Part shown: positions 6,282 through 58,680 of the stretch, piece after piece | How the letters are laid out: every line of letters starts with the position of its first letter | How positions within the stretch are numbered: position 1 is the stretch's first letter | Origin: an uncultured delta proteobacterium | GTDB lineage: Bacteria > Desulfobacterota > Binatia > UBA9968 | Assembly (NCBI GenBank): GCA_963760795.1 | Contig: CAVXEP010000029.1 | Coordinates: 160,001-224,000, forward strand | DNA length: 64,000 bases | Reading direction: 5' to 3' | Program-made: the position numbers and the translations under genes | The notes under the pieces: model-generated | Database searches by the model: none | What the model was told of the DNA's origin: nothing | The model's input: only the letters and a program-made list of their open reading frames with translations

Positions 6282-6790
6282 TGTATCTGGCCATTATGTT
6301 TTGCACAGAGTAGGGTTTTCTTTCAACAGGAATTGCCCCGGAGATTTGAGTTTAAGAGCCCAGTGAGGTCTTTCCGCGTTGTACCACAACAGCCACGGGA
6401 TTAGTTGGCGATTGAACTGATCGGGACTGATAAGCAACCCTTCATGGTAGTCAATGAATTCTTCCTGAATTGTCCGATTAAATCGTTCCACGTGGGCATT
6501 CATCTTGGGGGTTCTGGGATAGGTATGCCAGTGGTTTTTGTGCAGCCGTCTTATCTCTTCATCGAAGTGCTTCATGAACTCAGAGCCGTTGTCGGTAAGC
6601 ACGGACTGAAGCGGATAAGGAAAGACCGCAGCCACAATCCCAAAGAATTCTCGGGCCGCCAAAGAAGCATGGCTCTGGGTGGCCCAGGCAAAACCGAAGC
6701 GAGAGTAGCCACACTCCCCGGGAGCGTTGGCCTTATAGCCTTTGGGCTTTCTGCCCTTGGGGCGGTGTTTCTTCTCGACTCTCTGCCCAT
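6282..6790 (-). mobile_element. IS481-family transposase remnant (C-terminal integrase core, internally deleted)
   Basis: LTDNGSEF, YPRTPKMNAHVERFNRTIQEEF and YNAERPH motifs; the first catalytic Asp region and HTH are missing; candidate TGT terminus at 6282. Confidence 0.75.
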
Positions 6791-7183
6791 CGGGCCCAAG
6801 GTCGATATGCCACTGCGCGGCTAGACCGTTATTCAGTTGGATGTCATCGCGATGTTGTGATTCCAGCTGCAAGGTCAATGAGGGCGAAACATTCGCCAGT
6901 ACTTTAAGGCGATTTCGCAGGCGACCTCTCCCCGATCTGAATGTGCTTTCTTTACCCTAGACGCACTGGTGCACATAGTCCCAGTCTAACCGTAGAAATC
7001 GATACGATCCCAGCGTGCAACGTTGCAACTAAGGGACATGCGATGTCGACTTAAATCCCACAACCAAATGGCGATGGACTCTAGTAGAGGGCAAAGCTGA
7101 AGAAAGCGTTCTTCGGCCACCATCAAAGCGCCTTAATCGGCGCGTCGGAGCTCGCACCCCTCGTGACCAGACATCAATTCCGT

Positions 7184-15069: not shown

Positions 15070-15201
15070 GTCGTGCTGAATCTTTATTTCAAAGCGCGAT
15101 TCCAATAACGCGGCTCATTATATCAACCGAAATTCGTTAGCCAAATCTTCAAACGATGCGAATTGTTAATCTTTGTATTTGCAAGCGTTGTGAGTCTTTT
15201 A

Positions 15202-15216
15202 TGGCATGCTGTTTGC
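15202..15216 (+). promoter_or_regulatory. sigma54 -24/-12 element
   Basis: TGGCATGCTGTTTGC. Confidence 0.8.
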
Positions 15217-15261
15217 GGTAATTACGATCAAATTCAAGGACGAACATGCGGAGGATATAAC

Positions 15262-15876
15262 ATGGCGGACAGCTCATTTCTGACCGATGTCAAAACTTTA
15301 CGTGAACGGGCGCGTCGACACATCGAACGGGGCGCTGTGACGGAGGGTTACCAAGCCGACCGAGAGGTGGTTTTGAAACTCTTGAATGAAGCGCTAGCTA
15401 CCGAGCTTGTTTGCGTCTTGCGCTACCGGCGCCACTATTTCATGGCTAACGGTATCCACGCTGGAGCCGTGGCCGACGAATTTATGCAGCACGCCAACGA
15501 AGAGCAGGCTCATGCCGATCAAATTGCCGCTCGTATCGTGCAATTAGGCGGCGCACCCAATCTCTCCCCAGAAGGTATGTTAGCGCGAAGCCACTCCGAA
15601 TATGTTGAGGGTGATTCGCTGACTGATATGATTCGCGAGGACCTGGTTGCTGAACGCGTTGCCATCGATAGCTATAAGGAGATGATTCAGTATCTCGGCA
15701 GTAAAGATCCTACTACACGCCGGATGATCGACGGGATTCTAGCAGTCGAGGAAGAACACGCAGAAGATCTGGCGACACTTTTGGAACGGTATGATCAGCC
15801 GGCCTACGCGGGTTCTGTGTCACTGCAAAAAATGAACGATGACGCCCTTGCGATGCATAAGGAAAAGCAGGATTAA
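15262..15876 (+). CDS. Ferritin-like/bacterioferritin-family diiron protein
   Basis: LNEALATE, EEQAHAD, DLVAERVAI, EEEHAEDL ferroxidase ligands; RBS GGAGG before ATG 15262. Confidence 0.9.
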   Translation: MADSSFLTDVKTLRERARRHIERGAVTEGYQADREVVLKLLNEALATELVCVLRYRRHYFMANGIHAGAVADEFMQHANEEQAHADQIAARIVQLGGAPNLSPEGMLARSHSEYVEGDSLTDMIREDLVAERVAIDSYKEMIQYLGSKDPTTRRMIDGILAVEEEHAEDLATLLERYDQPAYAGSVSLQKMNDDALAMHKEKQD

Positions 15877-16541: not shown

Positions 16542-17072
16542 ATGCACATGCCGAACGCAATTCAAATGGTTAAACAGGACCACAAGAAGGTTGCAAACCT
16601 GTTCGACAAATACAAACACACTAAGAAAGAAGAAGCCAAACGGCGGATTGCCGAACAAGCCATGGAACAGTTGGAGGTTCATGCCTTGGTGGAAGAGGAC
16701 ATCTTTTATCCTGCGGTCAAAAAAGCACTAGGAGACGGAGCGTTAATTCACGATGCGCTTAAAGAACATCAGGTGATCAAAGAGTTGATCGAAGAACTCA
16801 AGATTATCGAGGATTACGATGAGGATTTCGAAGAGAAATGGTCTGAACTCGTAGAAAACGTTCAAAATCATGTCAACGAAGAGGAGAGCGACCTCTTGCT
16901 GCAGGCTGAAGAAAGCGAACTTGATCTTGTTAACTGCGGCGCACTGATGACAGAGCGCAAAGAAAAGGCGATCGAGGAAATTGGCGCCAGCTCAATGGCC
17001 CATACTGGAAAATTACGTCCCGGCTCGAGATCGAAAAACTCGACAAAACACTCAGAAAGCCGGCACGCATAG
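16542..17072 (+). CDS. Hemerythrin-like HHE cation-binding protein
   Basis: KQDH, LEVHALVEEDIFYP, EH, HVNEEE motifs. Confidence 0.88.
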   Translation: MHMPNAIQMVKQDHKKVANLFDKYKHTKKEEAKRRIAEQAMEQLEVHALVEEDIFYPAVKKALGDGALIHDALKEHQVIKELIEELKIIEDYDEDFEEKWSELVENVQNHVNEEESDLLLQAEESELDLVNCGALMTERKEKAIEEIGASSMAHTGKLRPGSRSKNSTKHSESRHA

Positions 17073-22825: not shown

Positions 22826-25663
22826 ATGAAGCCCCAAACATCGATCAAGCTGCGCTGGCATCTAATAGTGCTGATAGTCGCCACATTGGTGCCGATGCTG
22901 ATTTTCGCAGCTATTCTGATGCAGCGTGAAATCAAACAGCAGCAGGAAAATGTCGACCGTGGCATGCGCCATACCGCCCGGGCGCTTTCCCTTGCCGTGG
23001 ACCGCGAAATCTCAAGCGCGCGGGCAGTGCTGGATACACTTGAAGGCTCGCAGTCTATCGACGAACGCAATTTTCCACGGTTTTATCGGTTGGCTGCGGC
23101 CGCCGCGGCGAAACGTCAAGGTTCGCGTGTCATTCTTTTCGCTCTCGATGGTCAACAGCTTGTCAACACCGCTAGACCTTTAGGCGATTCGCTGCCCAAT
23201 CCTTTTCAGGAAGGACAGCCGGAAGGGAAAAATCCCGTTTATCCCGATCTCCCTATCGGTGGAAATGCTCATCTGAAGCAAATTATCGAAACCGGCCAGC
23301 CCACACTTTCCGATGTGTTTATCACCTTAACCAACCGGCGACCCGAGATCTCGATTGGAGTGCCGGTCAAGCGCAACAACAAGATTCTTTACATTCTAGA
23401 TATAGTTTTCGAGTTGGGAACATTTACTAGATTGCTGCTGGAAGAAGGGATACCCGCAGGCTCGGAAGGAGTGATCATCGACCGCCAGGGAGTTATCGTC
23501 ACTCATACCAAGGCTCCGGAGCGGTTTATTGGCCGGCGCGCGGCGGCGCCGCTACTCGAGCAGATGGCCAAGTTGGATGAGGGAGTCGCGATCACGCAGA
23601 GTCCGACAGACGCATCGACCGCGCTCTATTTTGTTCGATCAAATTCAACCGGGTGGAGCACCGGTATCGGTGTTTCGCAAGCGGCGGCGCACGCGGCGCT
23701 CAATCGCACTTTTTATTTACTGATTGGCGGCGCGGCACTGTTGCTGTTGTTAAGTCTGGCGGCCGCGCTATTTCTAGGCAGACGGCTGACCAGCTCCCTC
23801 GCCCGGCTGGCTCATTCGGCGGAAGCGATTCAGCACGGTGAGCCGATCGCACTCAAACGCTCTACGGTTTATGAGATCGATGAATTACATCGCCAATTGG
23901 TTCAAGCCGGAACCCTGGCGCGACAAAGCTTTCAGGATCGCCGATTGCGCATTGAGGCCGAAGCGCAGCGGGCTGCGGCCGAGGCAGCGCGAAGTGAAAT
24001 CCTCGAACGTGAAGCAAAATTGCAAGAAAGCGAGGAACGCTTGCGTGCCTTTCTCGAAAACAGCGCGACGATTGCGTGGATGGTCGACGAAGAGGGGCGC
24101 TATGTTTATCTGAGCCGTAATTATCTGAAGCATTTCGATCTCGGTGCGCGACAATGGCAGGGCAAGACCGTCTTCGATTTGTGGCCGGCGGCGGTCGCCG
24201 AGAAGCTGCGTCAATCAGATTTGGCGGTGCTTGCCCATGGCGGACTGCAAGAGGAGATTGAGCAGACGAAAAATCCCGATGGCAGCCGCTCATGGTGGTT
24301 CAATTCCCGATTCGTGCTCACAGATCGTTCGGGCAAACGCTATGTTGGTAGTCTGGCGGTCGATATCACCGAGCGCAATCGGCTCCAAGAAGAACTCGAG
24401 CAGCGCGTCGCCGAGCTGAAAGAAGCCGACCGGCGCAAGGATGAATTTTTAGCGGTGCTATCGCATGAGTTAAGAAATCCGCTGGCACCGATTGCCAATG
24501 CCGTGCAGATTCTAAAAACGCTCGATGCCGCGGATCCGAAGCTGCGCTGGTGCCGCGACTTGATCGATCAGCAAATCAATTTGATGGCCCGCTTGATGGA
24601 AGATCTGCTCGACGTCAGCCGAATCACCCGAGGGCGATTACCGTTGCGTAAGCAGTTGGTGGAGCTGGGCCCGGTGGCTGAGGACGCGCTACAAATAAGC
24701 CGGCCGCTCATCGAAGCCCGTGGGCATAAGCTAACGGTCGATCTGCCGGCGGAAAGATTGATGCTTGACGGCGACCCGGCGCGGCTGACGCAAGTGTTTG
24801 CAAATTTATTGAACAACGCCGCCAAGTACATGGAAGGCAGCGGCGAGATTCGCTTTACAGCGAGGCTCGAGAGAGCCCTCACTCTCGTCCCCTTCGACGA
24901 GTTCAGGATAGGTTCTGCCGTCGCGGGCGAGAATGGGCGAACAGAAGCCGCGAGAGTAGAGACGGCGAGAAGCAACGAAGTCATCATTTCGGTCAAAGAC
25001 AACGGCATCGGCCTCGCGCCGGAACAACTGCCGCATATATTCGACATGTTTTTTCAGGTCGATACCGGCAGAGATCGCCACTACGATGGCTTGGGTATTG
25101 GACTGACTCTGGCGCGCAACTTGATCGAGCTGCATGGCGGCACGATTGAGGCGAGGAGCGAGGGGCTCGGAAAGGGCAGCGAGTTTATCATGCATTTGCC
25201 GGTGGCGAGGGTCGATGCCGTTTCAGCGGCAAGCGAGCGGGCGGCGCATCAACCACCGGCAGCATTGCCTGGCAAACGTATCGCCGTGGTGGACGACAAT
25301 AAGCTGCAGGCGCGATCCATGGCGATACTGCTCGAGGTGATGGGTTACCAGGTGAAGACCGCCCATGATGGCGAGAGCGCGATTCGCATGATCGCGGAGT
25401 TTGTCCCGCAAGTGGCACTCATCGACATCGGTTTGCCGGGATTAAACGGTTATGAACTGGCGCGTCGGTTGCTCGCGTTGCCGCAAGTAAACGGCATCAC
25501 GCTGATCGCGCAGACCGGTTGGGGACGGGATGAAGACCGGGAGTTATCGCGCCAAGCCGGTTTCCAGCATCATCTTCTCAAGCCGATCGATCGCCGGCTA
25601 CTGGAGGAGCTCCTGGGCGAGATTCTTGGTTCAACGTCGACTGAGTCGATTATCTCGCAGTAG
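22826..25663 (+). CDS. Membrane hybrid sensor histidine kinase (Cache-like periplasmic domain, PAS, HisKA, HATPase, REC)
   Basis: Two TMs; SHELRNPL H-box; NLLNNAAKY; DNGIG; GLGIGL; REC LIDIGLPG. Confidence 0.92.
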   Translation: MKPQTSIKLRWHLIVLIVATLVPMLIFAAILMQREIKQQQENVDRGMRHTARALSLAVDREISSARAVLDTLEGSQSIDERNFPRFYRLAAAAAAKRQGSRVILFALDGQQLVNTARPLGDSLPNPFQEGQPEGKNPVYPDLPIGGNAHLKQIIETGQPTLSDVFITLTNRRPEISIGVPVKRNNKILYILDIVFELGTFTRLLLEEGIPAGSEGVIIDRQGVIVTHTKAPERFIGRRAAAPLLEQMAKLDEGVAITQSPTDASTALYFVRSNSTGWSTGIGVSQAAAHAALNRTFYLLIGGAALLLLLSLAAALFLGRRLTSSLARLAHSAEAIQHGEPIALKRSTVYEIDELHRQLVQAGTLARQSFQDRRLRIEAEAQRAAAEAARSEILEREAKLQESEERLRAFLENSATIAWMVDEEGRYVYLSRNYLKHFDLGARQWQGKTVFDLWPAAVAEKLRQSDLAVLAHGGLQEEIEQTKNPDGSRSWWFNSRFVLTDRSGKRYVGSLAVDITERNRLQEELEQRVAELKEADRRKDEFLAVLSHELRNPLAPIANAVQILKTLDAADPKLRWCRDLIDQQINLMARLMEDLLDVSRITRGRLPLRKQLVELGPVAEDALQISRPLIEARGHKLTVDLPAERLMLDGDPARLTQVFANLLNNAAKYMEGSGEIRFTARLERALTLVPFDEFRIGSAVAGENGRTEAARVETARSNEVIISVKDNGIGLAPEQLPHIFDMFFQVDTGRDRHYDGLGIGLTLARNLIELHGGTIEARSEGLGKGSEFIMHLPVARVDAVSAASERAAHQPPAALPGKRIAVVDDNKLQARSMAILLEVMGYQVKTAHDGESAIRMIAEFVPQVALIDIGLPGLNGYELARRLLALPQVNGITLIAQTGWGRDEDRELSRQAGFQHHLLKPIDRRLLEELLGEILGSTSTESIISQ

Positions 25664-25733: not shown

Positions 25734-26795
25734 ATGACAATCCCAACTGAGCCGATCGGCAGCATCCCAAGACCTCTTAAGCTGATTGAGGCGATCGCCA
25801 CACGAGGAGTCAATGATCCGTCATTGGAGACGCTCTTTGAAGACGCGAGCCGCGACACCATCGAGCGCTTCGAGGCGACGGGATCGCCCGTCATCGCCGA
25901 CGGCGAGCAAAGAAAATATCACAACTTCTGGACGTACAGCGTGCAGGGATTGCCCAATGCGGCGGAGGACGGCTTTAAGATACCTTTCGTCGCCGGTCAC
26001 ACTCGCCGGATGCTGCGCTTGACCGATGGTCCTTTCCGCTACAAGACCTATGCGGACAGCTACCTGGATTTGGCGCTACGCCATGCCCATGTGCCAGTGA
26101 AGCAGGCGGTCATCTCGCCTTCCGCCCTCAGTCTTATGTATCCGCCCGACGAGATCCCTGGCTATCCGCGCGGGCAGTTCATCGACGACCTGCTCCGCGA
26201 GCACGAGACCGAGGTGCGCGCCTGCTTGCGCAAAGGCGCGCACAAAGTGCAGATCGACTTCACGGAAGGGCGGCTGGCGCTTAAGATCGACCCTTCCGGG
26301 CATCTCTTGCAGAGCTTTATCGATCTGAACAATCTGGCGCTGGCACGCTTCTCCGCCGCAGATCTTCAGCGCATCGGCGTGCACACATGTCCCGGTGGCG
26401 ACCGCGATTCGACCCACAGCGCGGATGTCGATTACGCCGAGCTGCTGCCGCAACTGTTCGAGTTGACGGCGGGCAACTTTTACATCGCGCTGGCCGGGGA
26501 AACGGACCATGTCCGGGTCCTGAAGATCATCCGCGACCACATGAAGGCGGACCAGCGAATTTTTGTTGGCGTTATCGCACCGATCGATGCGCGTGTCGAG
26601 ACAGCCGAACAGGTTCGGGATCGGGTCCTCGAGGCGGCCCAATACATTCCGCTCGAGCAATTGGGCACCACCGATGACTGCGGTTTTGCACCGTTCTGCG
26701 ATGACACTTCGACGACCCGCGACACGGCCTTTGCAAAGATCCGGGCGCGCGTAGAGGGCACGGCGCTTGCAGCGGAAATTCTCGGAGGTCATTAA
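25734..26795 (+). CDS. Cobalamin-independent methionine synthase core-domain (MetE C-half) family protein
   Basis: IGSIPRP, DGEQRK, GVHTCPG and DDCGF motifs; 353 aa, a single barrel. Confidence 0.85.
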   Translation: MTIPTEPIGSIPRPLKLIEAIATRGVNDPSLETLFEDASRDTIERFEATGSPVIADGEQRKYHNFWTYSVQGLPNAAEDGFKIPFVAGHTRRMLRLTDGPFRYKTYADSYLDLALRHAHVPVKQAVISPSALSLMYPPDEIPGYPRGQFIDDLLREHETEVRACLRKGAHKVQIDFTEGRLALKIDPSGHLLQSFIDLNNLALARFSAADLQRIGVHTCPGGDRDSTHSADVDYAELLPQLFELTAGNFYIALAGETDHVRVLKIIRDHMKADQRIFVGVIAPIDARVETAEQVRDRVLEAAQYIPLEQLGTTDDCGFAPFCDDTSTTRDTAFAKIRARVEGTALAAEILGGH

Positions 26796-28825
26796 TGGCG
26801 GCGACAGACCACGAGGATGCGCGGCTTCGTTCCGTTGCCCTGCAAAACGCCCGGAGCATCGTACTTGCGCGCCGGCGCGCAGAGGAAGTGTTGCGCAAGC
26901 AGTCAGAGTGGCTGCGCGTCACGCTTTCCAGCATTGGCGATGGGGTGATCAGCACCGACGCCGAAGGCCGTGTGAGCTTTATGAATGGCGTGGCCGAGGC
27001 CTTAACGGGTTGGACGCGCAATGAAGCGATGGGGCAAGCGCTTGATGCGGTGTTCCGCATTGTCAACGAGTCAACCCGCGAAGGCGTGGAAAATCCGGCT
27101 ATGCGGGTACTGCGCGAAGGCGCCATTGTCGGGCTGGCGAACCATACTCTCCTCATTGCCAAAGATGGCACGGAACGACCGATCGACGACAGTGCCGCGC
27201 CGATCTGCAATGAGAAGGGGAGCATCGCTGGATGTGTACTGGTCTTTCGCGATGTTACCGAGAGGCGCAGGGCGGAAGACGCCCTGCACCGTAGCGAACG
27301 CGAACTCAGCGAGTTCTTCGAAAACGCCAACGTCGGCCTGCACTGGGTCGGCCCAGACGGGATCATCTTGCGGGCGAACCAGGCCGAACTCGATTTGCTC
27401 GGTTACAGCCGCGAGGAATACGTCGGCCGCCATATCGCCGAGTTTCATGTCGATAAACCCGAGATCGACAAGATGCTCGACTGCTTACTGCGCGCTGAGA
27501 ACCTGCATGAATACCCGGCGCGAATGCGCTGTAAAGACGGATCGATCCGGGACGTGCTGGTAAACTCCAGCGGGTTTTTCGAGAACGGCGAATTCATTCA
27601 CAGCCGTTGCTTCACCCACGATATCACCGAGCGCAAACGGGCCGAACAAAAACTCACCGACGCCAACCGCCGCAAGGACGAATTTTTAGCGACGTTATCG
27701 CACGAGCTGAGAAACCCGCTGGCGCCGATTCGCAACGCCGTGCAAATCTTAAAGACCATCAGCCCCGCCACGCCGACGCTCGAGTGGTGCCGGGATTTGA
27801 TCGATAACCAGGTCGCCCAGATGGCGCGGCTGATGGAAGATCTGCTCGACCTCACCCTTATCTCGCGTAATTCGTTGGAGCTGCGCAAACAGCCGGCGGA
27901 TTTGGGCGCGGTGATCGAAGGTGCGATCGAAACCAGCCGGCCGCTGATCGAAGCGGGCCGGCACCAGCTCACGGTCAATCTGCCGGCGCAAAAAATGATG
28001 CTAGATGGCGATCCGGCCCGCCTTATTCAAGTGTTCGCCAATTTATTGAATAACGCGGCAAAGTACACGGAACCTGACGGCGAGATCCACGTAAACGCGG
28101 AGCTCGTCCGCCGAGCGGAGCAGGACGGTTTACAGGACGTGGTTGTCTCGATCAAAGATAGCGGTATCGGCATTGCGCCTGACCTGCTGCTGCATCTTTT
28201 CGAAATGTTTTTTCAGGCCGATCGCAGCAAAGAACGCCATTACGGCGGTTTGGGAATCGGCCTTACGCTGGCGCTTCATATCGTTAAGCTGCACGGCGGG
28301 GGTATTGAAGTTAACAGTGAAGGACTCGGCAAGGGCAGCGAATTTGCCGTGCGCTTGCCGTTAGCTAAAGAATCCGGCGAGCAGGACCAGGGCAGCGTCG
28401 GCGCCGGCAATGAGGCAAATCCGCGTGCGCGGCGTTTGTCCAGGTCGGTATTAGTTGTGGATGACAACAATAATCAGGTCGAGAGCATCGCCATGCTGCT
28501 GAAGATTCTTGATTGCGAAGTGCGCGCGGCTAATGACGGTGTAAGCGCCCTGGAAGCACTGAAAGAGTTCATTCCTGAATTTGCCCTGATCGATATTGGT
28601 TTGCCGGGTATAGATGGTTTTGAGCTGGCGCGGCGTATCCGCAAATTCGACGAATATAAAAATATCGTGCTTATCGCGCAAACCGGCTGGGGAAGGGAAG
28701 AGGATCGTATAGAATCGCGCCAAGCAGGTTTTGATTATCACCTGGTAAAACCACTGGATTTCCAGTTGCTCGAAAGGATATTGACGGGAGCGGAGCCGCC
28801 GACCTTGAGTCAAGCTCGGGTTTAA
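26795..28825 (+). CDS. Cytoplasmic PAS-PAS hybrid histidine kinase with REC
   Basis: TAATG overlap with the upstream gene; two PAS/PAC domains; SHELRNPL; REC LIDIGLPG. Confidence 0.92.
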   Translation: MAATDHEDARLRSVALQNARSIVLARRRAEEVLRKQSEWLRVTLSSIGDGVISTDAEGRVSFMNGVAEALTGWTRNEAMGQALDAVFRIVNESTREGVENPAMRVLREGAIVGLANHTLLIAKDGTERPIDDSAAPICNEKGSIAGCVLVFRDVTERRRAEDALHRSERELSEFFENANVGLHWVGPDGIILRANQAELDLLGYSREEYVGRHIAEFHVDKPEIDKMLDCLLRAENLHEYPARMRCKDGSIRDVLVNSSGFFENGEFIHSRCFTHDITERKRAEQKLTDANRRKDEFLATLSHELRNPLAPIRNAVQILKTISPATPTLEWCRDLIDNQVAQMARLMEDLLDLTLISRNSLELRKQPADLGAVIEGAIETSRPLIEAGRHQLTVNLPAQKMMLDGDPARLIQVFANLLNNAAKYTEPDGEIHVNAELVRRAEQDGLQDVVVSIKDSGIGIAPDLLLHLFEMFFQADRSKERHYGGLGIGLTLALHIVKLHGGGIEVNSEGLGKGSEFAVRLPLAKESGEQDQGSVGAGNEANPRARRLSRSVLVVDDNNNQVESIAMLLKILDCEVRAANDGVSALEALKEFIPEFALIDIGLPGIDGFELARRIRKFDEYKNIVLIAQTGWGREEDRIESRQAGFDYHLVKPLDFQLLERILTGAEPPTLSQARV

Positions 28826-31288: not shown

Positions 31289-33421
31289 ATGGCAAAAGAA
31301 CGTGGCAGCCGTAAAACTCAATCGAATCGCGAGCAAAGCGCGCAATATGGCGACCAAACTGTAACCGTCGGCGCCGGCGGCGAAACCCACCAGACCGCCG
31401 ATGACGGTGCCCCTGTATTGACCACTCAACAGGGCACTCCGGTGTCGGACGACCAAAACTCGCTGAAGATCGGCGCCCGCGGGCCGACGGTGCTGGAAGA
31501 TTTTCATTTTCGCGAGAAAATTTTTCACTTCGATCACGAGAGAATTCCCGAGCGAGTGGTCCATGCCCGCGGTTTCGGCGCCCATGGGTATTTCGAAAAC
31601 TACGAATCCCTTGCCGACGTGACCAAGGCGGATCTTTTCCAGCGCGCCGGTGAGAAGACTCCCGCTTTCGTGCGTTTCTCCACCGTCGCCGGCAACAAGG
31701 GCTCAGCGGACTTAGCGCGCGACGTGCGCGGTTTTGCCGTCAAGCTCTACACCCAACAAGGCAACTGGGATATCGTCGGCAACAACATTCCAGTGTTTTT
31801 CATTCAGGATGCCCTCAAGTTTCCCGATTTCGTACATTCTGTCAAAGAGGAACCGGATCGCGGCTTCCCCCAGGCGGCGTCAGCGCATGACAACTTTTGG
31901 GACTTTGTTTCGCTATCGCCGGAGAGCACCCACATGCTTTTGTGGGTTATGTCGGACCGGGCGATTCCGCGTTCGCTGCGTTTCATGGAAGGCTTTGGCG
32001 TTCATACTTTTCGCCTGGTGGACGCCGAGGGTAATTCGACCTTCGTGAAGTTTCATTGGAAGCCGAAGCTCGGCATGCAATCGGTGGTGTGGAACGAAGC
32101 GGTGAAGATCAACGGCGCCGATGCGGACTTTCACCGGCGCGACATGTGGAACTCGATTAAGGCGGGGGACTATCCCGAGTGGGAGTTGGGTTTGCAGCTT
32201 TTCGATGAAGAGTTTGCCGAGAAATTTGATTTCGATGTGCTCGACGCGACGAAACTTATTCCGGAAGAACAAGTGCCGATCCGGCGCGTCGGCCGGCTCG
32301 TGCTCGATCGCTGCGTCGATAACTTTTTCGCCGAGACCGAGCAGGTGGCCTTTTGCACGCAAAATATCGTGCCGGGTATCGACTTTAGCAACGATCCGCT
32401 GCTCCAAGGGCGCAATTTTTCTTATCTCGATACCCAACTCAAACGCTTGGGCGGCCCCAACTTCACACATATTCCAATCAATGCGCCGAAATGTCCGTTT
32501 GCCCATTTTCAGCAGGACGGCCATATGGCCATGAGCAATCCCAAGGGGCGGGTCAACTACGAGCCCAATTCCTGGGAGGGTGACGGCGGTCCGCGCGAGT
32601 CGCCGGAAAAAGGTTTTCGCTCGTATCCGGCTGCGGAGGAAGGCGAGAAACTGCGCATTCGCTCAGAGACGTTCGCCGACCATTTCAGCCAAGCGCGGCA
32701 GTTTTATATCAGCCAGACCGAAACCGAGCAGAGTCATATCGTCGACGCCTTTGTCTTTGAGTTGAGCAAGGTCGAAAAGCTCGCCATCCGCGAGCGTATG
32801 GTGGCGCAGCTGCTCAACGTCCATGCGGATCTCGCGAAGAAAGTTGCCGAGGGTCTCGGTCTCAAAAAAATGCCCAAGGCGGCGGACGCGGCGAAGCCGA
32901 CGCGGCAGGACCTCAAAAAATCCCCGGCGTTGAGTATTCTTCTTAACGGCCCGAAGAGCTTCAAAGGGCGCAAGCTTGGCGTGCTGGTCACCGATGGCGT
33001 CGATAGCGCGATCTTGGACGCGCTCGAAAGTGCTCTTGAAGCGAAGGGCGCTATGATCGAGATTATTGCCCCGAAAGTGGGCGGCGTCGAAGCCAGCGAC
33101 GGTTCCTGGATCGAAGCAGCGCAGAAACTCGAAGGCGGCCCCTCTGTGCTTTATGACGCAGTAGCGCTACTACCTTCGGAAAGCGGCGCGCAAATGCTGG
33201 CGAAGAATCCGGCGGCGCGCGATTTTATCGCCGATGCCTTCGCTCATCGGAAATTCATCGCCTATGTAGATGCGGCTAGCAGTCTGTTGGCGCAAGCGGG
33301 AGTGGCGGAAAGTCGCGACAACGGGTTCATCATGCTCAAAGAGCCGGCCGACGCAGGCGCTTTCATCGAAGCGTGCGGCGAATTGCGATTTTGGCCGCGT
33401 GAAGCGATGCTGAAATCGTAA
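31289..33421 (+). CDS. katE: Large-subunit monofunctional catalase (HPII, clade 2)
   Basis: [29 protein letters not shown]; C-terminal DJ-1-like domain. Confidence 0.95.
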
Positions 33422-39108: not shown

Positions 39109-41127
39109 GTGCCGTTTAGCGGCGAAGGATCGGCGGCACCGGAGGTTTTAGCCGAGCGCGAATGGCTGATCACCAACGGTTTGGGTGGATACGCCTCAGG
39201 CACGTTGCTCGGCGCCATTACCCGGCGTTATCACGGCTTATTGATCGCTGCACTGCCGGCGCCGCTCGGCCGCGTGATGATGCTGAACCAACTAACGGAA
39301 TATCTTGAGTTGCCCGATCGCAGGCAAATCGAGTTGTCATCCGGGTTAGGTTTCAACGAAAGCAGCGAAAGCCCCGGCTTTGCGTCGCTGGCGGAATTTC
39401 GCCTGGAAGATGGTGTGCCGGTGTGGCGTTATCAGATCGGTGGCATCGTCATCGAAAAGAAAATCTTCATGGTGCACGGGCTAAATACCACACTGATCAG
39501 CTACGATTTACTCGAGGGCGATGAGCGCGTGCGGGTCAAGCTTTGTCCCCATGTGCAATTTCGCCCCCATGAAAACTTAGTGGATAAAGCATTGGAAGAC
39601 TATACCTTGAGGGCGACGTGTGGTGGATTTGAAATCTGTACCGCCGCGGCTCATCCGCCGTTGCGTTTGCTCGTGCACGGTCGCGATTGGGGTTTTAGCG
39701 GCGGCCACGCCAAGATCGATAAAGTGTTTTTTCGCGCCGAACAGCAGCGCGGTTATGAGGCGTTCGGCGAGCTATGCAGTTTCGGTTGGTTTGAAGCCGA
39801 AGTTTGCCTTAATGAGCCGATGACTGTGATTGCCTCGACGGAATCCTGGGAATCGATTACCGAAATGACGCCGCAAGAGAGTTACGCCGAGGAATTTTCC
39901 CGGCGGCAGCGGCTGGCATCAAGGGCCGGAATCGAAGATGGCACATCGATTAAAGCGGAGTTGGTGCTGGCTGCCGATCAGTTTGTCATCGCGCCCGTCG
40001 ATCCCAACAAAGAAAAAGACGCCGTCGGCGCACACACGATTATCGCCGGCTATCATTGGTTTACCGATTGGGGCCGTGACACGATGATCAGCTTGGAAGG
40101 GCTGACGCTGCTGACCGGCCGCCAACGCGAGGCGCGCGGCATACTCGACGTATTTTCCGAACATATTCGCGACGGGCTGATTCCAAACTTTTTTCCTGAG
40201 GGAGAGCAGGAAGGGGTCTATCATACCGCGGACGCGACGTTGTGGTTTTTTCACGCTCTGCAGCGTTATCTCGAAATGACCGACGATCGCGAATTTTTGC
40301 GCCAACTGCTGCCGAAATTGTCCGACATCGTGACCAAGCATCTGCAGGGTACGCGCTTCGGTATCGGCGTCGATCCGGAGGATGGCCTGCTGCGACAAGG
40401 GCAAGAAGGCTACCAGCTCAGCTGGATGGACGCCAAGGTAGAGGATTGGGTGGTGACACCGCGGCGCGGCAAAGCGGTGGAGATCAACGCCCTGTGGTAT
40501 AACGCGTTACGTCTGCTCGAAGGATGGCTGCGCGAAGAAGGTGATGGTGAGAACGCGCGCGAGATCGCTGGACACGCGCTCAAAGCCCAGGATTCTTTCA
40601 ACCGCCGCTATTGGTATGACGAAGGTGGTTATCTCTACGACGTTATCGATTGTGACAACGAAAGTGAAAAAAACGATCCCGCATGTCGGCCCAATCAAAT
40701 CATGGCTATCTCGCTAGACCATCCGGTCCTCGATAGCGAGCGCTGGCGTCCGGTGCTCAATGTCGTTCGTCAGCGCCTCGTCACACCCTACGGTCTGCGC
40801 TCGCTGGCGCCGAACCATCCGGACTACCAAGCGCGTTATTTCGGCGATCTGCGCGCGCGCGATGCCGCTTATCACCAAGGTACCGTTTGGGCTTGGTTGA
40901 TTGGGCCGTTCGTCGATGCGTGGTTGAAAGCCTACCCTGACGATCGCGCCGGCGCGCGCGGATTTCTAACAGCATTTGCCGATCACTTGGGCGAGGCTTG
41001 CATCGGCACGATCAGCGAGATCTTTGACGCCGAGCCACCGTTTACGCCACGCGGCTGCGTCTCTCAGGCTTGGAGCGTTGCCGAAGTGCTGCGCTGCGCG
41101 ATCAAGACCGGCGCTTTGGGCCGCTGA
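39109..41127 (+). CDS. Amylo-alpha-1,6-glucosidase / glycogen debranching enzyme (GDE N- and C-domains); true start may be ATG 39024 with a +1 error
   Basis: REWLITNGLGGYASGT, AGYHWFTDWGRDTMISL, WMDAK, YHQGTVW, QAWSVAE. Confidence 0.92.
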   Translation: MPFSGEGSAAPEVLAEREWLITNGLGGYASGTLLGAITRRYHGLLIAALPAPLGRVMMLNQLTEYLELPDRRQIELSSGLGFNESSESPGFASLAEFRLEDGVPVWRYQIGGIVIEKKIFMVHGLNTTLISYDLLEGDERVRVKLCPHVQFRPHENLVDKALEDYTLRATCGGFEICTAAAHPPLRLLVHGRDWGFSGGHAKIDKVFFRAEQQRGYEAFGELCSFGWFEAEVCLNEPMTVIASTESWESITEMTPQESYAEEFSRRQRLASRAGIEDGTSIKAELVLAADQFVIAPVDPNKEKDAVGAHTIIAGYHWFTDWGRDTMISLEGLTLLTGRQREARGILDVFSEHIRDGLIPNFFPEGEQEGVYHTADATLWFFHALQRYLEMTDDREFLRQLLPKLSDIVTKHLQGTRFGIGVDPEDGLLRQGQEGYQLSWMDAKVEDWVVTPRRGKAVEINALWYNALRLLEGWLREEGDGENAREIAGHALKAQDSFNRRYWYDEGGYLYDVIDCDNESEKNDPACRPNQIMAISLDHPVLDSERWRPVLNVVRQRLVTPYGLRSLAPNHPDYQARYFGDLRARDAAYHQGTVWAWLIGPFVDAWLKAYPDDRAGARGFLTAFADHLGEACIGTISEIFDAEPPFTPRGCVSQAWSVAEVLRCAIKTGALGR

Positions 41128-43460: not shown

Positions 43461-44664
43461 ATGGCGCGAAATTACTCTGCAACATTGACGACCGGCAGCG
43501 CTGATCCTGTCGCGGCGGCCGAGGCAGCGCGGTTGCGCTATGTCGGTGACTGGCAACCCGGTTTCTCCCGCAAGCTTACTAAAAAGAGATTTGTCTATTT
43601 AAATTTGCAAGGTCAGCCGCTGCGGGATCGGGTAGATCTCAGCCGGATTAAAGCGCTGGCTATCCCGCCGGCTTGGACGGGCGTTTGGATCTGTTCAAAA
43701 ACCAACGGTCATTTGCAGGCAACCGGACGCGATGCCCGGGGCCGTAAGCAGTATCGTTATCACGCGCGTTGGCGCGAGGTGCGTGACGAAAATAAATATC
43801 AACGCATGATCGCATTTGCCCAGGCTTTACCGGCAATTCGCGCCAGTGTTCACAGGGATTTGACGCTGTTCGGATTGCCGCGCGCTAAAGTGCTCGCGAC
43901 CATCGTCAAACTGCTTGAATCCACTCACATTCGCGTCGGCAACGAAGAGTACGCGCGGAGCAACCAATCATTCGGATTGGCGACGCTGCGCAACCGCCAT
44001 GTAAAAGTAAACGGACGGAACATTCGATTTCAATTTCGCGGTAAGAGCCGCGTCGCACATGCCATCGATTTGCAGGATAAACGCTTGGCGCGGATCATCA
44101 AACGTTGCCAAGATTTACCAGGCTACGAACTGTTCCAATATGTCGACGAGGCGGGCGCGACGGTTGCCATTGAAGCGGGCGATGTCAATGAATATCTGCG
44201 CGAGATTGCCGGCGCAGAATTTAGCACCAAGGATTTTCGCACCTGGGCCGGTACCCTGGTGGCAGCCCATGCGCTGCGCGCCTGCGCCGACTGTGAGTCG
44301 AAGGCGCAAATCAAACGAAACATTGTCCAGGCGGTCGAAAAGGTTGCACGGGTTTTGGGAAATACTAAAGCCGTCTGCCGCAAATGTTACATCCATCCGG
44401 CGGTTATCGAGGCATATTCGTCTGGCGCGCTCGGCCGCGATTCGCGCCCGCGTGCGCGGCGTTGCTGCTCGATCAGATTTGGCCCCCGAAGAAGCGGCGC
44501 TCGTCGCACTTTTAGAGCAGCAGGTGCGAGCATCCAGCGCAAAAGCAAAACCGCTCGCGCAAGCAAAACGTCAGCGCCAAAATCAAACGCCTTTCAAAGA
44601 TATTTGTCGGTCGTGCGCTGCGCCATGGGCGCTGAAACTACGCAGCGCGTCCGCAGGACGCTAA
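43461..44664 (+). CDS. Bacterial DNA topoisomerase IB; +1 frameshift in the C-terminal tail (~44440)
   Basis: IPPAW, GRDARGRKQYRY, RVGNEEY, FRGK, KDFRTW, LGNT, catalytic Tyr in CYIHP. Confidence 0.92.
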
Positions 44665-44787
44665 AATCCAAGCTTGTGTTTGGTCTGTTGCAAAACCGGC
44701 ACGCATTCAATCGCTAGGAATCCTAATTCTAGGACGTGACGGCTATCGGCAAGAAATCTATTCCCGACAAAAAGTAACAATTATGAG

Positions 44788-48184: not shown

Positions 48185-50122
48185 ATGAAACATCAACTCG
48201 TGAGCGGTGCCACGGCACGATCTCCACGTCGATACTCGGACATACGAAGACTGCCCATCGGTGCGGAAGTGACGGCAGCCGATGGCGTTCATTTTCGCGT
48301 GTGGGCGCCTAGCTGTGAACGCATCGAAGTTGTTTTTGAAGCGGTCAACGGAATGCCGGCAATAGCGGCGCTGGAGCTCGAGGCGGAGGATGGGGGTTAT
48401 TTCTCGGGCGCGGCGAGTGCAGCGCAAGCCGGCATGCTTTATCGCTTTCGTCTCAATGGCAGCGATCAACTCATTCCCGATCCGGTATCTCGATTCCAAC
48501 CTGAAGGGCCCCATGGTCCATCGCAGATAATCGATCCGAGCCGATTCGCTTGGAGCGACACCACTTGGCTAGGCGCGGAGCTTCTCGGCCAGGTGCTCTA
48601 TGAGCTCCATATCGGCACTTTCACGCGCGAAGGAACCTGGCGCGCGGCGCAGGACGAGCTCAAAGAACTAAAAAACTTGGGCATCACGGTGATCGAAGTA
48701 ATGCCGGTCAATGAATTTGCCGGGCGATTCGGTTGGGGTTACGATGGCGTCGATCTATTTGCGCCGACTCACCTGTACGGCGAGCCCGATGATTTTCGCC
48801 ACTTTGTCGATCATGCACATGCTTTGGGCATCGGGGTCATTCTCGATGTAGTTTACAATCATCTGGGGCCCGACGGTTGTTACGTCAAGTTGTTTTCCGA
48901 TCACTATTTCAGCGCCAAGCATACGACCGACTGGGGCGAGGCGATCAATTTCGACGGCGACCAGTGCCGGCCGGTGCGCGAATTCTTTCGCTGCAATGCG
49001 GGCTACTGGATCGAAGAGTATCATCTCGACGGCCTGCGGCTCGACGCGACGCAAAATATTTATGACGATTCCACGCCGCATATTATCGCCGAAATAGCCG
49101 CGGAGGTCAGAAAAGTTGCGGCACCGCGCGCGACCATCATTATCGCCGAGAATGAATCGCAAGATGTTAAATTGGTGCGCCCGGCAAGCGCCGGCGGCTA
49201 CGGTTTGGACGGCATGTGGAATGACGATTTCCATCACAGCGCGCGGGTTGCCCTCACCGGCGAACGCGAGGCGTATTATACCGATTACCTGGGCACGCCG
49301 CAGGAGCTGATCTCAGCGCTCAAGTGGGGATTTTTATATCAAGGCCAATGGTATCAATGGCAAAAGCAACGGCGCGGCACGCCGACTCGCGGCTTGAAGC
49401 CGAGCACGTTCGTGACCTTCCTGGAAAACCACGATCAGATCTGCAACTCGGGTTTTGGCGAGCGAATCCAATTTGCCTCTCATCCGGGTTGCTACCGGGC
49501 GTTGACCGCGTTGTTGCTGCTGGGACCGGGGACGCCGCTCTTATTCATGGGCCAGGAGTTCTGCGCTTCATCCCCCTTCGTCTTTTTTGCCGATCACAAG
49601 CCTGAGCTAGCCAAATTGGTCTACCAGGGCCGGCTCGAGTTCGTTAGTCAATTTACCAGTCTTGCGACCCCCGAGTCCCAGGCAAGAATCCCCGATCCCG
49701 CCGCTTGGCAGACCTTCGAAGCTTGCAAGTTGAAACTCGCCGAGCGCGAGGAGCACAAACCAATCTACCAGCTGCATCGCGATTTATTAAAACTGCGGCA
49801 CGACGATGCGGTGTTTCGCGCTCAAGGCGCGCACGGCTTTGACGGCGCGGTATTGGCGCAGAAAATTTTTATCCTGCGCTTTTTCGGCTCAGAGGAAGAA
49901 GGGGACCGCCTCCTTGTCATCAACCTCGGTATCGATTACGTTTATGACCCGGCTCCGGAACCGCTCCTGGCGCCGCCGGAGAAATCGCAATGGCAAATCG
50001 TCTGGTCGAGCGAAAGTCCGGTATACGGCGGCCGGGGGACAACGCCGTTCGGTACACAAAATTGGAAAATCCCGGGGTACGCGGCGATCGTTCTGGCGTC
50101 AATAAGCGTTGACATGATTTAA
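48185..50122 (+). CDS. treZ: Malto-oligosyltrehalose trehalohydrolase (GH13)
   Basis: FRVWAP, DPVSRFQPEGPHG, WGYDGV, DVVYNHLGP, GLRLDA, WNDDFHH, NHDQ. Confidence 0.9.
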   Translation: MKHQLVSGATARSPRRYSDIRRLPIGAEVTAADGVHFRVWAPSCERIEVVFEAVNGMPAIAALELEAEDGGYFSGAASAAQAGMLYRFRLNGSDQLIPDPVSRFQPEGPHGPSQIIDPSRFAWSDTTWLGAELLGQVLYELHIGTFTREGTWRAAQDELKELKNLGITVIEVMPVNEFAGRFGWGYDGVDLFAPTHLYGEPDDFRHFVDHAHALGIGVILDVVYNHLGPDGCYVKLFSDHYFSAKHTTDWGEAINFDGDQCRPVREFFRCNAGYWIEEYHLDGLRLDATQNIYDDSTPHIIAEIAAEVRKVAAPRATIIIAENESQDVKLVRPASAGGYGLDGMWNDDFHHSARVALTGEREAYYTDYLGTPQELISALKWGFLYQGQWYQWQKQRRGTPTRGLKPSTFVTFLENHDQICNSGFGERIQFASHPGCYRALTALLLLGPGTPLLFMGQEFCASSPFVFFADHKPELAKLVYQGRLEFVSQFTSLATPESQARIPDPAAWQTFEACKLKLAEREEHKPIYQLHRDLLKLRHDDAVFRAQGAHGFDGAVLAQKIFILRFFGSEEEGDRLLVINLGIDYVYDPAPEPLLAPPEKSQWQIVWSSESPVYGGRGTTPFGTQNWKIPGYAAIVLASISVDMI

Positions 50123-50160
50123 CGATTTGAAACCTGCCTAGAACTGTTTTGGAGGGACCT

Positions 50161-52378
50161 ATGCGAGTGTGGCCGGGGAAACCTTATCCGTTAGGGGCGA
50201 CATGGGATGGCAAAGGGGTCAACTTTGCATTGTTTTCAGAATCGGCGAGCAAAGTTGAACTCTGTCTATTCGATGGCAGTCGATGCCAGTCAAGAAGCTC
50301 AGCGCTTGGAATTAACCGAACGCACCGATCAGGTCTGGCATGCCTATCTCCCGGAAGCGTTGCCGGGGCAGCTCTACGGCTATCGCGTGCACGGTCCTTA
50401 CGAGCCAAGCCAAGGCCATCGCTTCAATCCGCACAAGATCGTCCTCGATCCCTATGCTAAATCCATCGGCCGGGAGCTGCGCTGGGCGGACGAAGTTTTC
50501 GCTTACCGCATGGGCGACCCGGAAGCCGACCTCACGTTCGACGAGCGGGACAGCGCGCCTTATGCTCCCTTGGCGGTGGTCATCGATCCGGCTTTTACCT
50601 GGGGCGATGACAAGCCGCCGCACACGCCCTGGCATAAGACGATTATTTACGAGTTGCACGTCAAGGGTTTTACCAAACTGCATCCAGGAGTCGGCGAACC
50701 GCTGCGCGGCAGTTATGCCGGGTTGGCCTCGGAGGTGGTGGTCAATCACCTACTCAATCTAGGGGTCACCGCCGTGGAGCTGATGCCGGTGCATCAATTT
50801 ATCAACGATCGCCATCTGGTCGACCGCGGCAAAGTTAATTATTGGGGCTACAACTCGCTGGCCTATTTGGCGCCCGAGTGCCGCTATAGCGCCACCAGTA
50901 TTCCCCAGGACGCGGTGCAGCAGTTTAAAATGATGGTGGCGGCGTTTCATGCCGCAGGCATCGAGGTCATTCTCGACGTGGTCTACAACCACACCGCGGA
51001 GGGCAATCAGCTTGGCCCGACGCTGTCGCTGCGCGGCATCGACAACGCAGCCTATTACAAACTCACACCCGAGGATCAGCGTTTTTACATGGACTATACC
51101 GGCTGCGGCAATTCCCTCAATGTGCGCCATCCGCGGGTCTTGCAGCTGATCATGGACAGCCTGCGCTATTGGGTTGCCGACATGCATGTGGACGGCTTCC
51201 GTTTCGACCTCGCCAGCACCTTGGCGCGGGAACTTTATGAAGTAGATCGCCTTGGCGCGTTTTTCGACATTATTCATCAAGACCCGACTCTGTCACAGGT
51301 CAAATTGATCGCCGAACCTTGGGATGTCGGGCCAGGCGGCTATCAAGTGGGTAATTTCCCGGTGCTATGGAGTGAATGGAATGGCAAATACCGCGACGGC
51401 GTCCGGCGCTTTTGGAAAGGCGACGGCGGCACCCTGTCGGAATTTGCCACGCGCCTGAGCGGCAGCAGCGATCTTTATCAAAGTGACGGCCGTAAGCCAT
51501 ACGCCAGCATCAACTTCATCACCTGCCACGACGGTTTCAACTTGCAAGATCTGGTGAGCTACAACGAGAAGCACAATGAGGCCAATGGCGAAAATAATCA
51601 GGACGGCGCCAACGACAACAACAGTTGGAACTGCGGTGTGGAGGGCCCCACCGACGATCCCGCTGTGAACGCGCTGCGCTGGAAGCAAAAGCGCAACCTG
51701 ATCGCCACGCTCTTATTTTCTCAGGGTGTGCCGATGCTTTTAGCCGGCGATGAGCTGAGCCACACGCAGCAAGGCAACAACAACACCTATTGCCAGGACA
51801 ACGAGCTTACCTGGCTCGATTGGGAACTGACAGATGAGGAGCAGGATTTTCTCGAATTCGTCAAACAGATGATTTCCATCCGCCGCAGCCAACCGGTCTT
51901 TCAACGGAGCAAATTTTTTCAGGGGCGGCCAATCTTCGGCGGCGATGAGAGCGACATCACCTGGTTCGAGCCTTCGGGCAAGCCGATGGGCGAAGCGGCA
52001 TGGAGCGCCGGATTTAACCAGTGCTTCGGCGTGCGCATGCCGGGCGATTTGATCGGTGAAGTCGATGATCGCGGGCAGGAGATCAAAGGCGATTCGATCT
52101 TGATTCTGATGAACGCTTTCCACGAACCGATTCCCTTCAAGATTCCGGCGCGCGTCAAGGGGCAGCGCTGGCAACGCTTGATCGACACGGCGCTCCCCGG
52201 CACCGCGCGTAATTGGTTTGCCAGCGGCAAAGCTTACGATCTCAAAGGCCGATCGATGGTCGTGTTCCGCACGGTGGCGGGCGATTTGGCGGTCGACCCG
52301 CCAAGGCGCCGCGCCGCGGCCGCACACTCGCGAGCGCGGCGCCAACCCTTAAAGACGGCATCGGGCAAGCGGAAATAG
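50161..52378 (+). CDS. glgX: Glycogen debranching isoamylase (GH13); +1 frameshift at ~50276
   Basis: [50 protein letters not shown]. Confidence 0.93.
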
Positions 52379-52884: not shown

Positions 52885-53682
52885 ATGCAATTAAAAGAAT
52901 TTATCAATTACCACGTCGAAACGATTGGCCCGGAAGACACGTTGCAACAGGCCGCGGAGAAAATGCGCGATTTCGATGTCGGGTCGATTCCGGTTTGCGA
53001 CGACAACCGACTGCTCGGCATGGTGACGGATCGTGACATTACGATCCGAGCTGCCGCCAACGGCGACGATCCAACAATCACCACTGTGAGCGAAGTCATG
53101 ACCCCCGACGTCGTTTGTTGTTACGAGCATCAGACGGTAGAAGAAGCCGCGGCACTGATGCAACAGCATCAAATACGTCGGCTGTTTGTGCTGAATGAAA
53201 ACGACGAATTGATCGGCATCACCTCTTTGGGTGAGCTTGCGACGGCGACCGGAAACCGGCAGCTGGCGGGTGAAACTCTCGAGCGGGTGTCCGACTCCGC
53301 CGAGGTTCCGCCGGATCGAGAGCAGGATTTGTCGGACGCGGAGGAAGAAACAAGCATGGGTGACGGCGCGCTGGCGGCTGAGACCCGGGTCACCGGATTA
53401 TTCGATGATTCGGATCAAGCCAGGGAAGCGGTGGAAGAATTAAAAGACGCCGGTTTTGCCGATTATCGGATTGCCGTCGCCATGCAGGACAGGGCGGATC
53501 AGGACAGCTTTATCGCCGAAACCAAAGTGCTCACCGCGGCTGTGCAAGAAATTCCCAGTCTTCCGGAACTCGACTCCGGACAGGTGCTCCTTCTGATCGA
53601 CGCCGCCGATCAGGCTGCGCTGGCGTTAGAAATTATCAACCGCAATCAAGGTGTCACCGGCGGCGTGCGCATGCCGACGTAA
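52885..53682 (+). CDS. CBS-pair protein with a C-terminal YflT-like domain
   Basis: GMVTDRDITIR, IRRL.V; C-terminal GLFDD..QA.EAVEELK.AGF. Confidence 0.85.
   Translation: MQLKEFINYHVETIGPEDTLQQAAEKMRDFDVGSIPVCDDNRLLGMVTDRDITIRAAANGDDPTITTVSEVMTPDVVCCYEHQTVEEAAALMQQHQIRRLFVLNENDELIGITSLGELATATGNRQLAGETLERVSDSAEVPPDREQDLSDAEEETSMGDGALAAETRVTGLFDDSDQAREAVEELKDAGFADYRIAVAMQDRADQDSFIAETKVLTAAVQEIPSLPELDSGQVLLLIDAADQAALALEIINRNQGVTGGVRMPT

Positions 53683-56439: not shown

Positions 56440-58680
<2,241 letters not shown>

Follow-up and report, generated by a model that had tools for sequence, protein, structure and literature searches.

The window analysed here was a stretch of 64,000 nucleotides from an uncultured delta proteobacterium (assembly GCA_963760795.1, contig CAVXEP010000029.1, positions 160,001 to 224,000 of the forward strand), and the object of the analysis was a pair of adjacent genes in it, the first encoding a protein related to a single barrel of the methionine synthase MetE and the second encoding a hybrid histidine kinase. 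The open reading frames (ORFs) of the MetE-like protein and of the kinase, 353 and 676 amino acids (aa) long, respectively, had one base in common: the stop codon TAA (26793-26795) and the start codon ATG (26795-26797) shared the final A of the former, giving the sequence TAATG, and a GGAGG sequence was located within the last codons of the MetE-like gene. The upstream neighbour (22826..25663) also encoded a hybrid kinase with the Pfam architecture dCache-PAS-HisKA-HATPase-REC, and the MetE-like gene was thus flanked by hybrid kinase genes on both sides (22826..25663 and 26795..28825). The ORFs, the overlap and the position between two hybrid kinases were all as described in the original prediction, which had been made from the sequence of this DNA. 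The features of the pair, with the evidence used for each of them, were as follows:

25734..26795, forward strand: MetE-fold single-barrel protein, proposed co-sensor, 353 aa (ORF, Pfam, AlphaFold2 model, orthologues)
26382..26390, forward strand: codons His217-Thr218-Cys219, zinc-ligand motif H-x-C (sequence; alignments with orthologues, 1ypx and paralogues)
26478..26501, forward strand: strand FYIALAGE, in which Ala252 takes the place of the Glu zinc ligand and Glu256 lies four residues on (alignments)
26679..26681, forward strand: codon Cys316 (DDCGF), third zinc ligand (sequence; alignments with orthologues and paralogues)
26784..26797, forward strand: coupling junction, with GGAGG at 26784-26788 and the TAATG stop/start overlap at 26793-26797 (sequence)
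26795..28825, forward strand: hybrid histidine kinase, 676 aa, with N-terminal helix, PAS, PAS, HisKA, HATPase_c and REC (Pfam, AlphaFold2 model)
26804..26887, forward strand: conserved N-terminal motif predicted to dock, kinase residues 4-31, an acidic stretch and then RLRSVALQNARSIVLARRRAEE (motif profile, predicted interface)

Soil and rhizosphere RNA libraries yielded contigs nearly identical to parts of both genes, with 1-5 differences each (for example, X15 records 1, 5 and 7; X16 records 10, 14 and 15; X18 records 26 and 31), and one 250-base contig of this kind, representing a relative of about 85%, spanned the junction (26664-26904). These contigs were not counted as support, since contigs cannot prove a single transcript and DNA may be present in such libraries.

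The kinship of the 353-aa protein with MetE is real but distant. The Pfam family Meth_synt_2 (PF01717) was barely recognised (24 bits versus a cut-off of 21, residues 226-319 only), and the scores with the NCBIfam methionine synthase equivalogs were all below their cut-offs (PRK06520, 58.8 versus 313; PRK04326, 52.7 versus 406; PRK06233, 46.5 versus 576; PRK09121, 37.9 versus 392); an NCBIfam scan of more distant relatives gave none above any cut-off. The best sequence matches in the PDB were 1ypx (E-value = 4.5 × 10−9) and 3rpd. The AlphaFold2 model, built from 31 sequences, had a predicted local distance difference test score (pLDDT) of 92.5 and a predicted template modelling score (pTM) of 0.91, and the Foldseek search with this model retrieved MesD (3rpd, E-value = 5 × 10−17, template modelling score 0.76), 1ypx (E-value = 3 × 10−14) and Thermotoga maritima MetE (1xpg, E-value = 2.8 × 10−14), with uroporphyrinogen decarboxylases ranking only after the MetE-type barrels. 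According to the model and the Foldseek search, the protein carries the fold of the MetE catalytic barrel. In the databases, its relatives were named cobalamin-independent methionine synthase II family protein or 5-methyltetrahydropteroyltriglutamate--homocysteine methyltransferase, and nothing but methionine-synthase-named clusters was found in the ESM Atlas.

The zinc ligands of Escherichia coli MetE are H641, C643, E665 and C726, and homocysteine is bound by its S433, E484 and D599, as stated in PMC7857596. Equivalent positions were assigned by sequence alignment only, namely, by a HMMER alignment to 1ypx and a MAFFT alignment that included 12 single-barrel paralogues from the window's genome. 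On these alignments, H641, C643 and C726 corresponded to H217 and C219 (GVHTC) and C316 (DDCGF), whereas S433, E484 and D599 corresponded to S10 (IGS), E58 (DGE) and D175 (QID). The Glu ligand E665 corresponded to Ala252 of the strand FYIALAGE, so that neither Glu nor Asp was present at the position of the fourth zinc ligand, and the same position was occupied by Glu in 12/12 paralogues. In 20/20 orthologues from many phyla, S10, E58, D175, H217, C219, A252, E256 and C316 were invariant; a clade-specific loop, YHNFW, followed the DGE motif near the pocket. The H-x-C and Cys ligands were absent from some distant relatives (P0126, P0133 and Streptomyces sp. NBC_01471). The original prediction had read the ligands in GVHTC and DDCGF as kept and the strand of the Glu ligand as FYIAL; both readings were confirmed, and the Glu, which it had proposed to look for on a proper alignment, was found to be absent.

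The domains of the downstream kinase were PAS-PAS-HisKA-HATPase_c-REC (HisKA, 52.8 bits; HATPase_c, 87.9 bits; Response_reg, 71.7 bits). In the AlphaFold2 model (pLDDT 88.3), the PAS domains occupied residues 50-153 and 181-276, the dimerisation and histidine phosphotransfer domain residues 278-357, the catalytic and ATP-binding domain residues 366-523, and the REC domain residues 551-663, while residues 4-46 formed one long helix running into the first PAS domain. The kinase alignment comprised the kinase of the window and 59 complete proteins of up to 1000 aa encoded downstream of related MetE-like genes; six longer proteins, as well as incomplete and frameshifted ones, were excluded. In these 60 kinases, H303, E304, L305, R306, P308 and L309 of the phospho-acceptor His box were conserved at 90% or more. 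Outside the kinase core, conserved columns were found only within the first 30 residues, with a spacing corresponding to one face of a helix: the common motif consisted of an acidic stretch followed by LLRSVALQNA.SILLARQRAE, in which E7 and R26 were invariant and L11, V14, A15, N18, A19, I22, A25, R28, A29 and E30 were conserved at 90% or more. The identity to the kinase of the window averaged 70% over residues 7-30 and 40% over residues 45-676. By Pfam content, HATPase_c was present in 57, REC in 47, PAS in 53 and GAF in 15 of the 60 partners, and the phospho-acceptor domains were of four kinds (HisKA, 55; HisKA_3, 2; HWE_HK, 1; HisKA_2, 1). The content and number of PAS and GAF domains differed among the partner kinases, and the PAS domain following the helix was of at least two different kinds, located at varying distances from it. 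Consequently, the N-terminal helix that the original prediction had singled out as unusual proved to be conserved far above chance and to be the sole part common to otherwise different kinases.

For the study of gene order, the best 80 of at least 559 stretches encoding relatives were taken from 185,579 species' genomes (one genome per species); the identity of their MetE-like proteins was 75-88%, and they came from soil bacteria of at least 10 phyla (Acidobacteriota, 23; Pseudomonadota, 18; Planctomycetota, 14; Gemmatimonadota, 6; Verrucomicrobiota, 5; Eisenbacteria, 4; and others). The protein-cluster search returned at least 8000 candidates, of which all scored ones passed an E-value of 0.001, and the best 120 listed were 80-99% identical. 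In nearly all of the 80 loci, a kinase-like gene began at the stop codon of the MetE-like gene, with similarity from kinase residues 1-7 onwards. A motif profile of the first 40 or so kinase residues, derived from 73 downstream ORFs, matched directly after this stop codon in 77/80 loci, the others being two contig ends and one rearranged locus (L072). The stop and start codons overlapped in 63/80 loci (in 47 as TAATG/TGATG with an ATG start, in 6 with a GTG or TTG start, in 4 as ATGA and in 6 as GTGA or TTGA); the remaining 17 comprised 13 loci without overlap, two contig ends and two read-through loci. A purine run resembling a Shine-Dalgarno sequence preceded the kinase start in 49/76 loci. 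Thus, the linkage on which the original prediction depended was conserved.

Clustering of the 825 neighbour ORFs of the 80 loci revealed no recurring neighbour besides the pair, and one cluster from eight loci was an antisense ORF lying over the MetE-like gene; the unit therefore consists of two genes. The idea of a conserved regulon was rejected on the same grounds, and the earlier suggestion that the pair feeds a stress regulon found no support as a general rule, the stress genes of this window not recurring beside the pair in the other loci. The earlier statement that no methionine or folate genes lie nearby held, as none of the 30 other window ORFs scanned with Pfam belonged to methionine or folate families. 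Fusion proteins were also considered as Rosetta-stone evidence. Altogether, 25 fusions of a MetE-like protein with PAS or kinase domains were found, 23 of them single-member and the others with three and two members; they were not counted, because the genes overlap by 1-4 bases and one indel joins them, and the read-through loci L038 and L059, as well as L017, look frameshifted.

Two loci of this set deserve a separate description. In L072, the junction sequence was repeated in a short tandem array after the MetE-like stop codon (approximately 7060-7100), and the motif-bearing kinase was located about 3.3 kb upstream on the other strand; either the locus has been rearranged or the assembly is at fault. 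Locus L009, the closest one, had the same three-gene order as the window; the upstream kinase (22826-25663, dCache-PAS) was 55% identical to the downstream kinase (residues 276-663) in this locus, which suggests that the kinase core was duplicated locally, and in this lineage only.

The helix motif and the MetE-like gene were also found together at the level of whole genomes. The genome of the window contained one motif (E-value = 2 × 10−17, the next match having 0.0011), and each of five large genomes contained one MetE-like gene with an adjacent motif. Among 301 genomes of the window's phylum, a close MetE-like relative was present in two, namely, the genome of the window and G145 (60% identity), while the motif was found in the former only; the gene of G145 had no kinase neighbour, and no motif was found in that genome. 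Of 251 genomes from the phylum to which G301 belongs, the same two had both the gene and the motif, next to each other. In total, the motif was found in 3/3 genomes carrying the coupled gene and in 0/549 others of the 552 searched, up to 23-28 candidates being scored in each genome; the co-occurrence with motif-bearing kinases that the original prediction had proposed to survey was therefore found. Carriers made up about 1% of the genomes of each phylum and were patchily distributed. It should be noted that genome G305 contained a second full motif (C3:2410112-2410240, forward strand, E-value = 1.2 × 10−11) in an 848-aa kinase-sized frame far from the MetE-like gene, and one sensor may serve two kinases there.

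Uncoupled relatives formed a sister clade, which included sequences from plasmids of Streptomyces (among them S. globisporus SGLP1, L091) and Trichlorobacter lovleyi (pGLOV01, L092), with L093 also on a plasmid, as well as the gene of G145. They were 57-64% identical to the coupled protein over the full length and 56-73% identical among themselves, being far less conserved than the coupled clade. No kinase was located downstream in any of the four loci inspected (4/4). The position of the Glu ligand was occupied by Q, E, Q and A in these four relatives, whereas A was invariant in the coupled clade; the Ser, Glu, Asp and Glu256 positions were the same in both clades, and the H-x-C and Cys ligands were present in three of the four, Cys219 and Cys316 having been lost in L093. 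The plasmid neighbours of the sister clade were unrelated (a carboxymuconolactone decarboxylase family gene, a 2-oxoacid:ferredoxin oxidoreductase gene and cobO). A search of 81 genomes of the class of G145 for further members gave only G145 itself.

The MetE-like protein is not needed as the methionine synthase of the cell, since MetH and about 15 other single-barrel paralogues were present in the genome. MetH scored 1079.6 bits with its neighbours in frame (C13:100918-104470 of the window's genome, reverse strand), and the Meth_synt_2 paralogues (17 matches) were located on contigs C1, C2, C7, C18, C19, C20, C22, C30 and C33. The MetH gene was split over several frames with one in-frame TAG, being either an assembly error in the genome bin or a decaying gene. 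The 12 paralogues examined all had the canonical Glu ligand, and about 15 is an unusually large family for one genome.

Comparative analysis of 78 MetE-like sequences (300 random pairs) gave a mean amino acid identity of 78%, while the identity at fourfold-degenerate sites was 0.42, which is close to saturation (the GC content at third codon positions was 0.7-0.88 in the 11 genes shown). Such a combination indicates strong purifying selection and not recent spread, and by this sequence comparison the protein is old and strongly constrained. The kinases of most of the same loci were only 30-50% identical. In a quick tree the phyla were intermingled, 25 label changes being counted where the minimum was 9 and shuffling gave a mean of 44; this topology, together with the patchy distribution, suits old transfers.

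Contact between the two proteins was assessed by complex prediction, with the MetE-like protein (alignment of 20 sequences) and kinase residues 1-45 (alignment of 60 sequences) each entered with its own, unpaired alignment. The interaction prediction score from aligned errors (ipSAE) was 0.69, 0.74 and 0.69 in three runs, compared with 0.02, 0.00 and 0.00 in three controls; the partner had a pLDDT of 78 or higher, and 95% or more of the contacts were common to the runs. Of the pairs used for calibration, 58/80 solved complexes and 2/110 mismatched pairs attained the threshold, a comparison that is only rough for predictions from own alignments. The predicted interface included residues 4, 7-8, 10-19, 21-26 and 29 of the helix and residues 81-82, 133-138, 146-154 and 182-204 of the barrel; in the modelled secondary structure, the latter belonged to the loops and helices after the strand ending at Ser128 and the strand with Asp175, which suggests that the interface would lie on the catalytic face. 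Some clade-specific interface positions fit this picture, L201 being replaced by Q, E, Q and N and F81 by V, A, I and A in the uncoupled relatives. Thus, the MetE-like protein probably binds the first helix of the kinase, and the complex model with its controls supports, as far as computation goes, the docking assumed in the original prediction. A separate idea, that Glu7 of the kinase supplies the missing zinc ligand in trans, was unsupported, though still conceivable, since the interface contained residues 4 and 7-8 of the helix but no zinc ligands.

Taken as a whole, the best-supported reading is that of an obligate two-protein sensor in which the MetE-like barrel is made in step with the kinase. 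The chances that the pair is an enzyme-derived co-sensor barrel docked on the N-terminal helix of a kinase, forming a self-contained two-gene signalling module, are judged to be slightly better than even. According to the proposed mechanism, both genes would be translated together via the overlapping stop and start codons, and the barrel keeps the zinc site (His217, Cys219 and Cys316) and the residues holding homocysteine (Ser10, Glu58 and Asp175) but has lost the Glu zinc ligand and carries clade-specific residues round the pocket, such as the YHNFW loop. Barrel residues 133-154 and 182-204 would bind the kinase's amphipathic N-terminal helix on one face; the occupancy or chemical state of the pocket would alter this contact, and the signal would travel along the helix into the first PAS domain and change autophosphorylation. 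The enzyme-like protein would presumably be the input and the kinase the receiver of the signal. As a zinc-thiolate site and a homocysteine pocket have been kept and the Glu has been lost, the ligand would most likely be a homocysteine-like thiol amino acid, or else the signal would be the oxidation or alkylation state of the zinc thiolate.

A broader proposal may be advanced only tentatively, as it is rather doubtful at present. The MetE barrel could represent a new class of cytoplasmic receptors for two-component systems, dedicated to a small molecule or to an electrophile or oxidant, with a zinc site that is left open by the loss of the Glu ligand and takes a thiol amino acid (e.g., homocysteine) or is oxidised or alkylated. 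Its signal would be passed on through a portable "plug" helix of about 30 residues, which evolution would have attached to four or more kinase classes in over ten phyla. The module would then be a widespread sensor of the methyl cycle or of thiol stress in soil bacteria, overlooked because it is annotated as methionine synthase.

Several observations weigh against a sensory role of the barrel. The contact is a matter of model confidence, calibrated roughly with unpaired alignments, and the zinc ligands lie outside the predicted interface. Clade-specific positions were not enriched in the interface (10/23 versus 99/330, Fisher p = 0.24, four uncoupled relatives). In the searches for co-occurrence, no more than 23-28 candidates were scored for any genome. 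Such extreme conservation over the entire protein is unusual for a small-molecule sensor and is left unexplained by this reading; moreover, the direction of signalling is not readable from sequence, and a pocket as well kept as this one may belong to a protein that is still a working enzyme.

If the protein is an active enzyme, it could make, remove or modify a small molecule sensed by the PAS domain of the kinase, and docking would merely hold the two together; an analogous case is the heme oxygenase gene located beside that of a bacteriophytochrome. Such an arrangement agrees with the invariance of all catalytic-type residues but the Glu ligand, with the PAS domain following the helix in 53/60 partners and with the predicted docking. 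It is nevertheless unlikely, given that this PAS domain is of at least two kinds at varying distance, that the numbers of PAS and GAF domains vary while only the helix is conserved, and that no other pathway gene recurs nearby. A reversed direction, in which the kinase senses via its PAS and GAF domains and its helix switches the enzyme, so that the MetE-like protein is a second output, appears more improbable still: a regulated enzyme without conserved pathway partners would be odd, and 47/60 partners are already complete hybrid kinases with a receiver domain of their own, although the kinases carry numerous and diverse sensory domains, as inputs should be, the enzyme-like pocket is intact, and the helix is predicted to lie on loops adjoining the Asp175 strand.

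The probability is just as low for a ligand-independent pseudoenzyme, serving the kinase as a structural subunit, inhibitor or scaffold and no longer able to bind zinc or a substrate. The Glu ligand has been lost in all members, and the distant relatives named above even lack the H-x-C and Cys ligands, as would be expected of such a protein; however, the invariance of His217, Cys219, Cys316, Ser10, Glu58 and Asp175 in 20/20 orthologues despite saturated synonymous sites is hard to explain without a working pocket. Very unlikely, finally, is an ordinary metabolic enzyme that shares a transcript with the kinase and makes no physical contact with it. An enzyme of this kind would agree with the database name of cobalamin-independent methionine synthase II family protein, with the fold and with the majority of the active-site residues; it would not agree with the strict co-occurrence of motif and gene (3/3 genomes versus 0/549), the junction kept in 63/80 loci, the complex model that passed its controls, the scores far under every NCBIfam methionine synthase cut-off and the presence of MetH.

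The co-sensor module proposed here may be compared with known proteins of the same fold and with known accessory sensors. The barrel fold is the same as that of the core methionine synthases MesD (3rpd) and the YxjG-like Listeria protein (1ypx); the H-x-C and Cys ligands and the Ser, Glu and Asp residues of these synthases are also kept, and the folate-binding N-terminal barrel is likewise absent. The MetE-like protein differs from 3rpd and 1ypx in its low identity (about 18-21%), in the Ala in place of the Glu or Asp zinc ligand, in the YHNFW loop and in the obligate pairing with a kinase; the term "histidine kinase" occurred 0 times in the accessible part of PMC7857596. Full-text literature searches, which did not cover supplementary tables, revealed no paper pairing a MetE-like protein with a histidine kinase; they also named no homocysteine-sensing kinase and gave no trigger enzyme of the MetE fold and none with such a helix.

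Small soluble ligand-binding proteins encoded beside a kinase and thought to control it by direct contact are known from H-NOX with HnoK and NosP with NahK. The logic proposed here is the same (a soluble protein beside a kinase, with direct contact predicted only), and adjacency across lineages, as in the H-NOX/HnoK case, was observed (77/80 loci; 3/3 genomes versus 0/549). In contrast to H-NOX and NosP, the protein is a TIM barrel and not a heme protein, has no heme motif and would dock via a defined N-terminal helix found on four kinase classes. The weak match of the kinase to the NCBIfam family near_NosP_CTERM (118.7 bits versus a cut-off of 400) reflects the kinase core only. Regulators are also informed by trigger enzymes and co-sensing proteins, which signal how active they themselves are, and the module would resemble these in that an enzyme fold serves a regulator as its input. 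Thus, the general kind is known, both as an accessory sensor beside a kinase and as a trigger enzyme, while the fold, the helix and the degree of conservation are not known for either.

If the two-protein sensor is real, thousands of database entries annotated as methionine synthases would represent half of a signalling module. The short, portable and defined docking helix would lend itself to the study or engineering of communication between accessory sensors and histidine kinases, and an enzyme fold recruited as a receptor could be compared with a natural uncoupled sister clade. An identity of 78% across phyla with saturated synonymous sites calls for an explanation in any case. Should the ligand be homocysteine or a thiol-reactive compound, no earlier two-component sensor dedicated to it emerged from the literature searches, and the module would be the first.

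Elsewhere in the window, genes related to oxidative and general stress were found at 15163-15876, 16542-17072, 31289-33421, 52885-53682, 56440-58638 and 62112-63998; they encoded a ferritin-like protein, a hemerythrin, two long catalases whose C-terminal domain is DJ-1-like, a CBS/YflT-like protein and a catalase-peroxidase, and this cluster may be a stress island. A glycogen debranching enzyme gene and two genes of the alpha-amylase/isoamylase family were located at 39109-41127 and 48185-52378, and a bacterial topoisomerase IB gene was found near them (43461-44717). A short ORF on the reverse strand (6294-6878), in which an integrase core domain (rve_3) is represented by its end only, is probably a transposase remnant.

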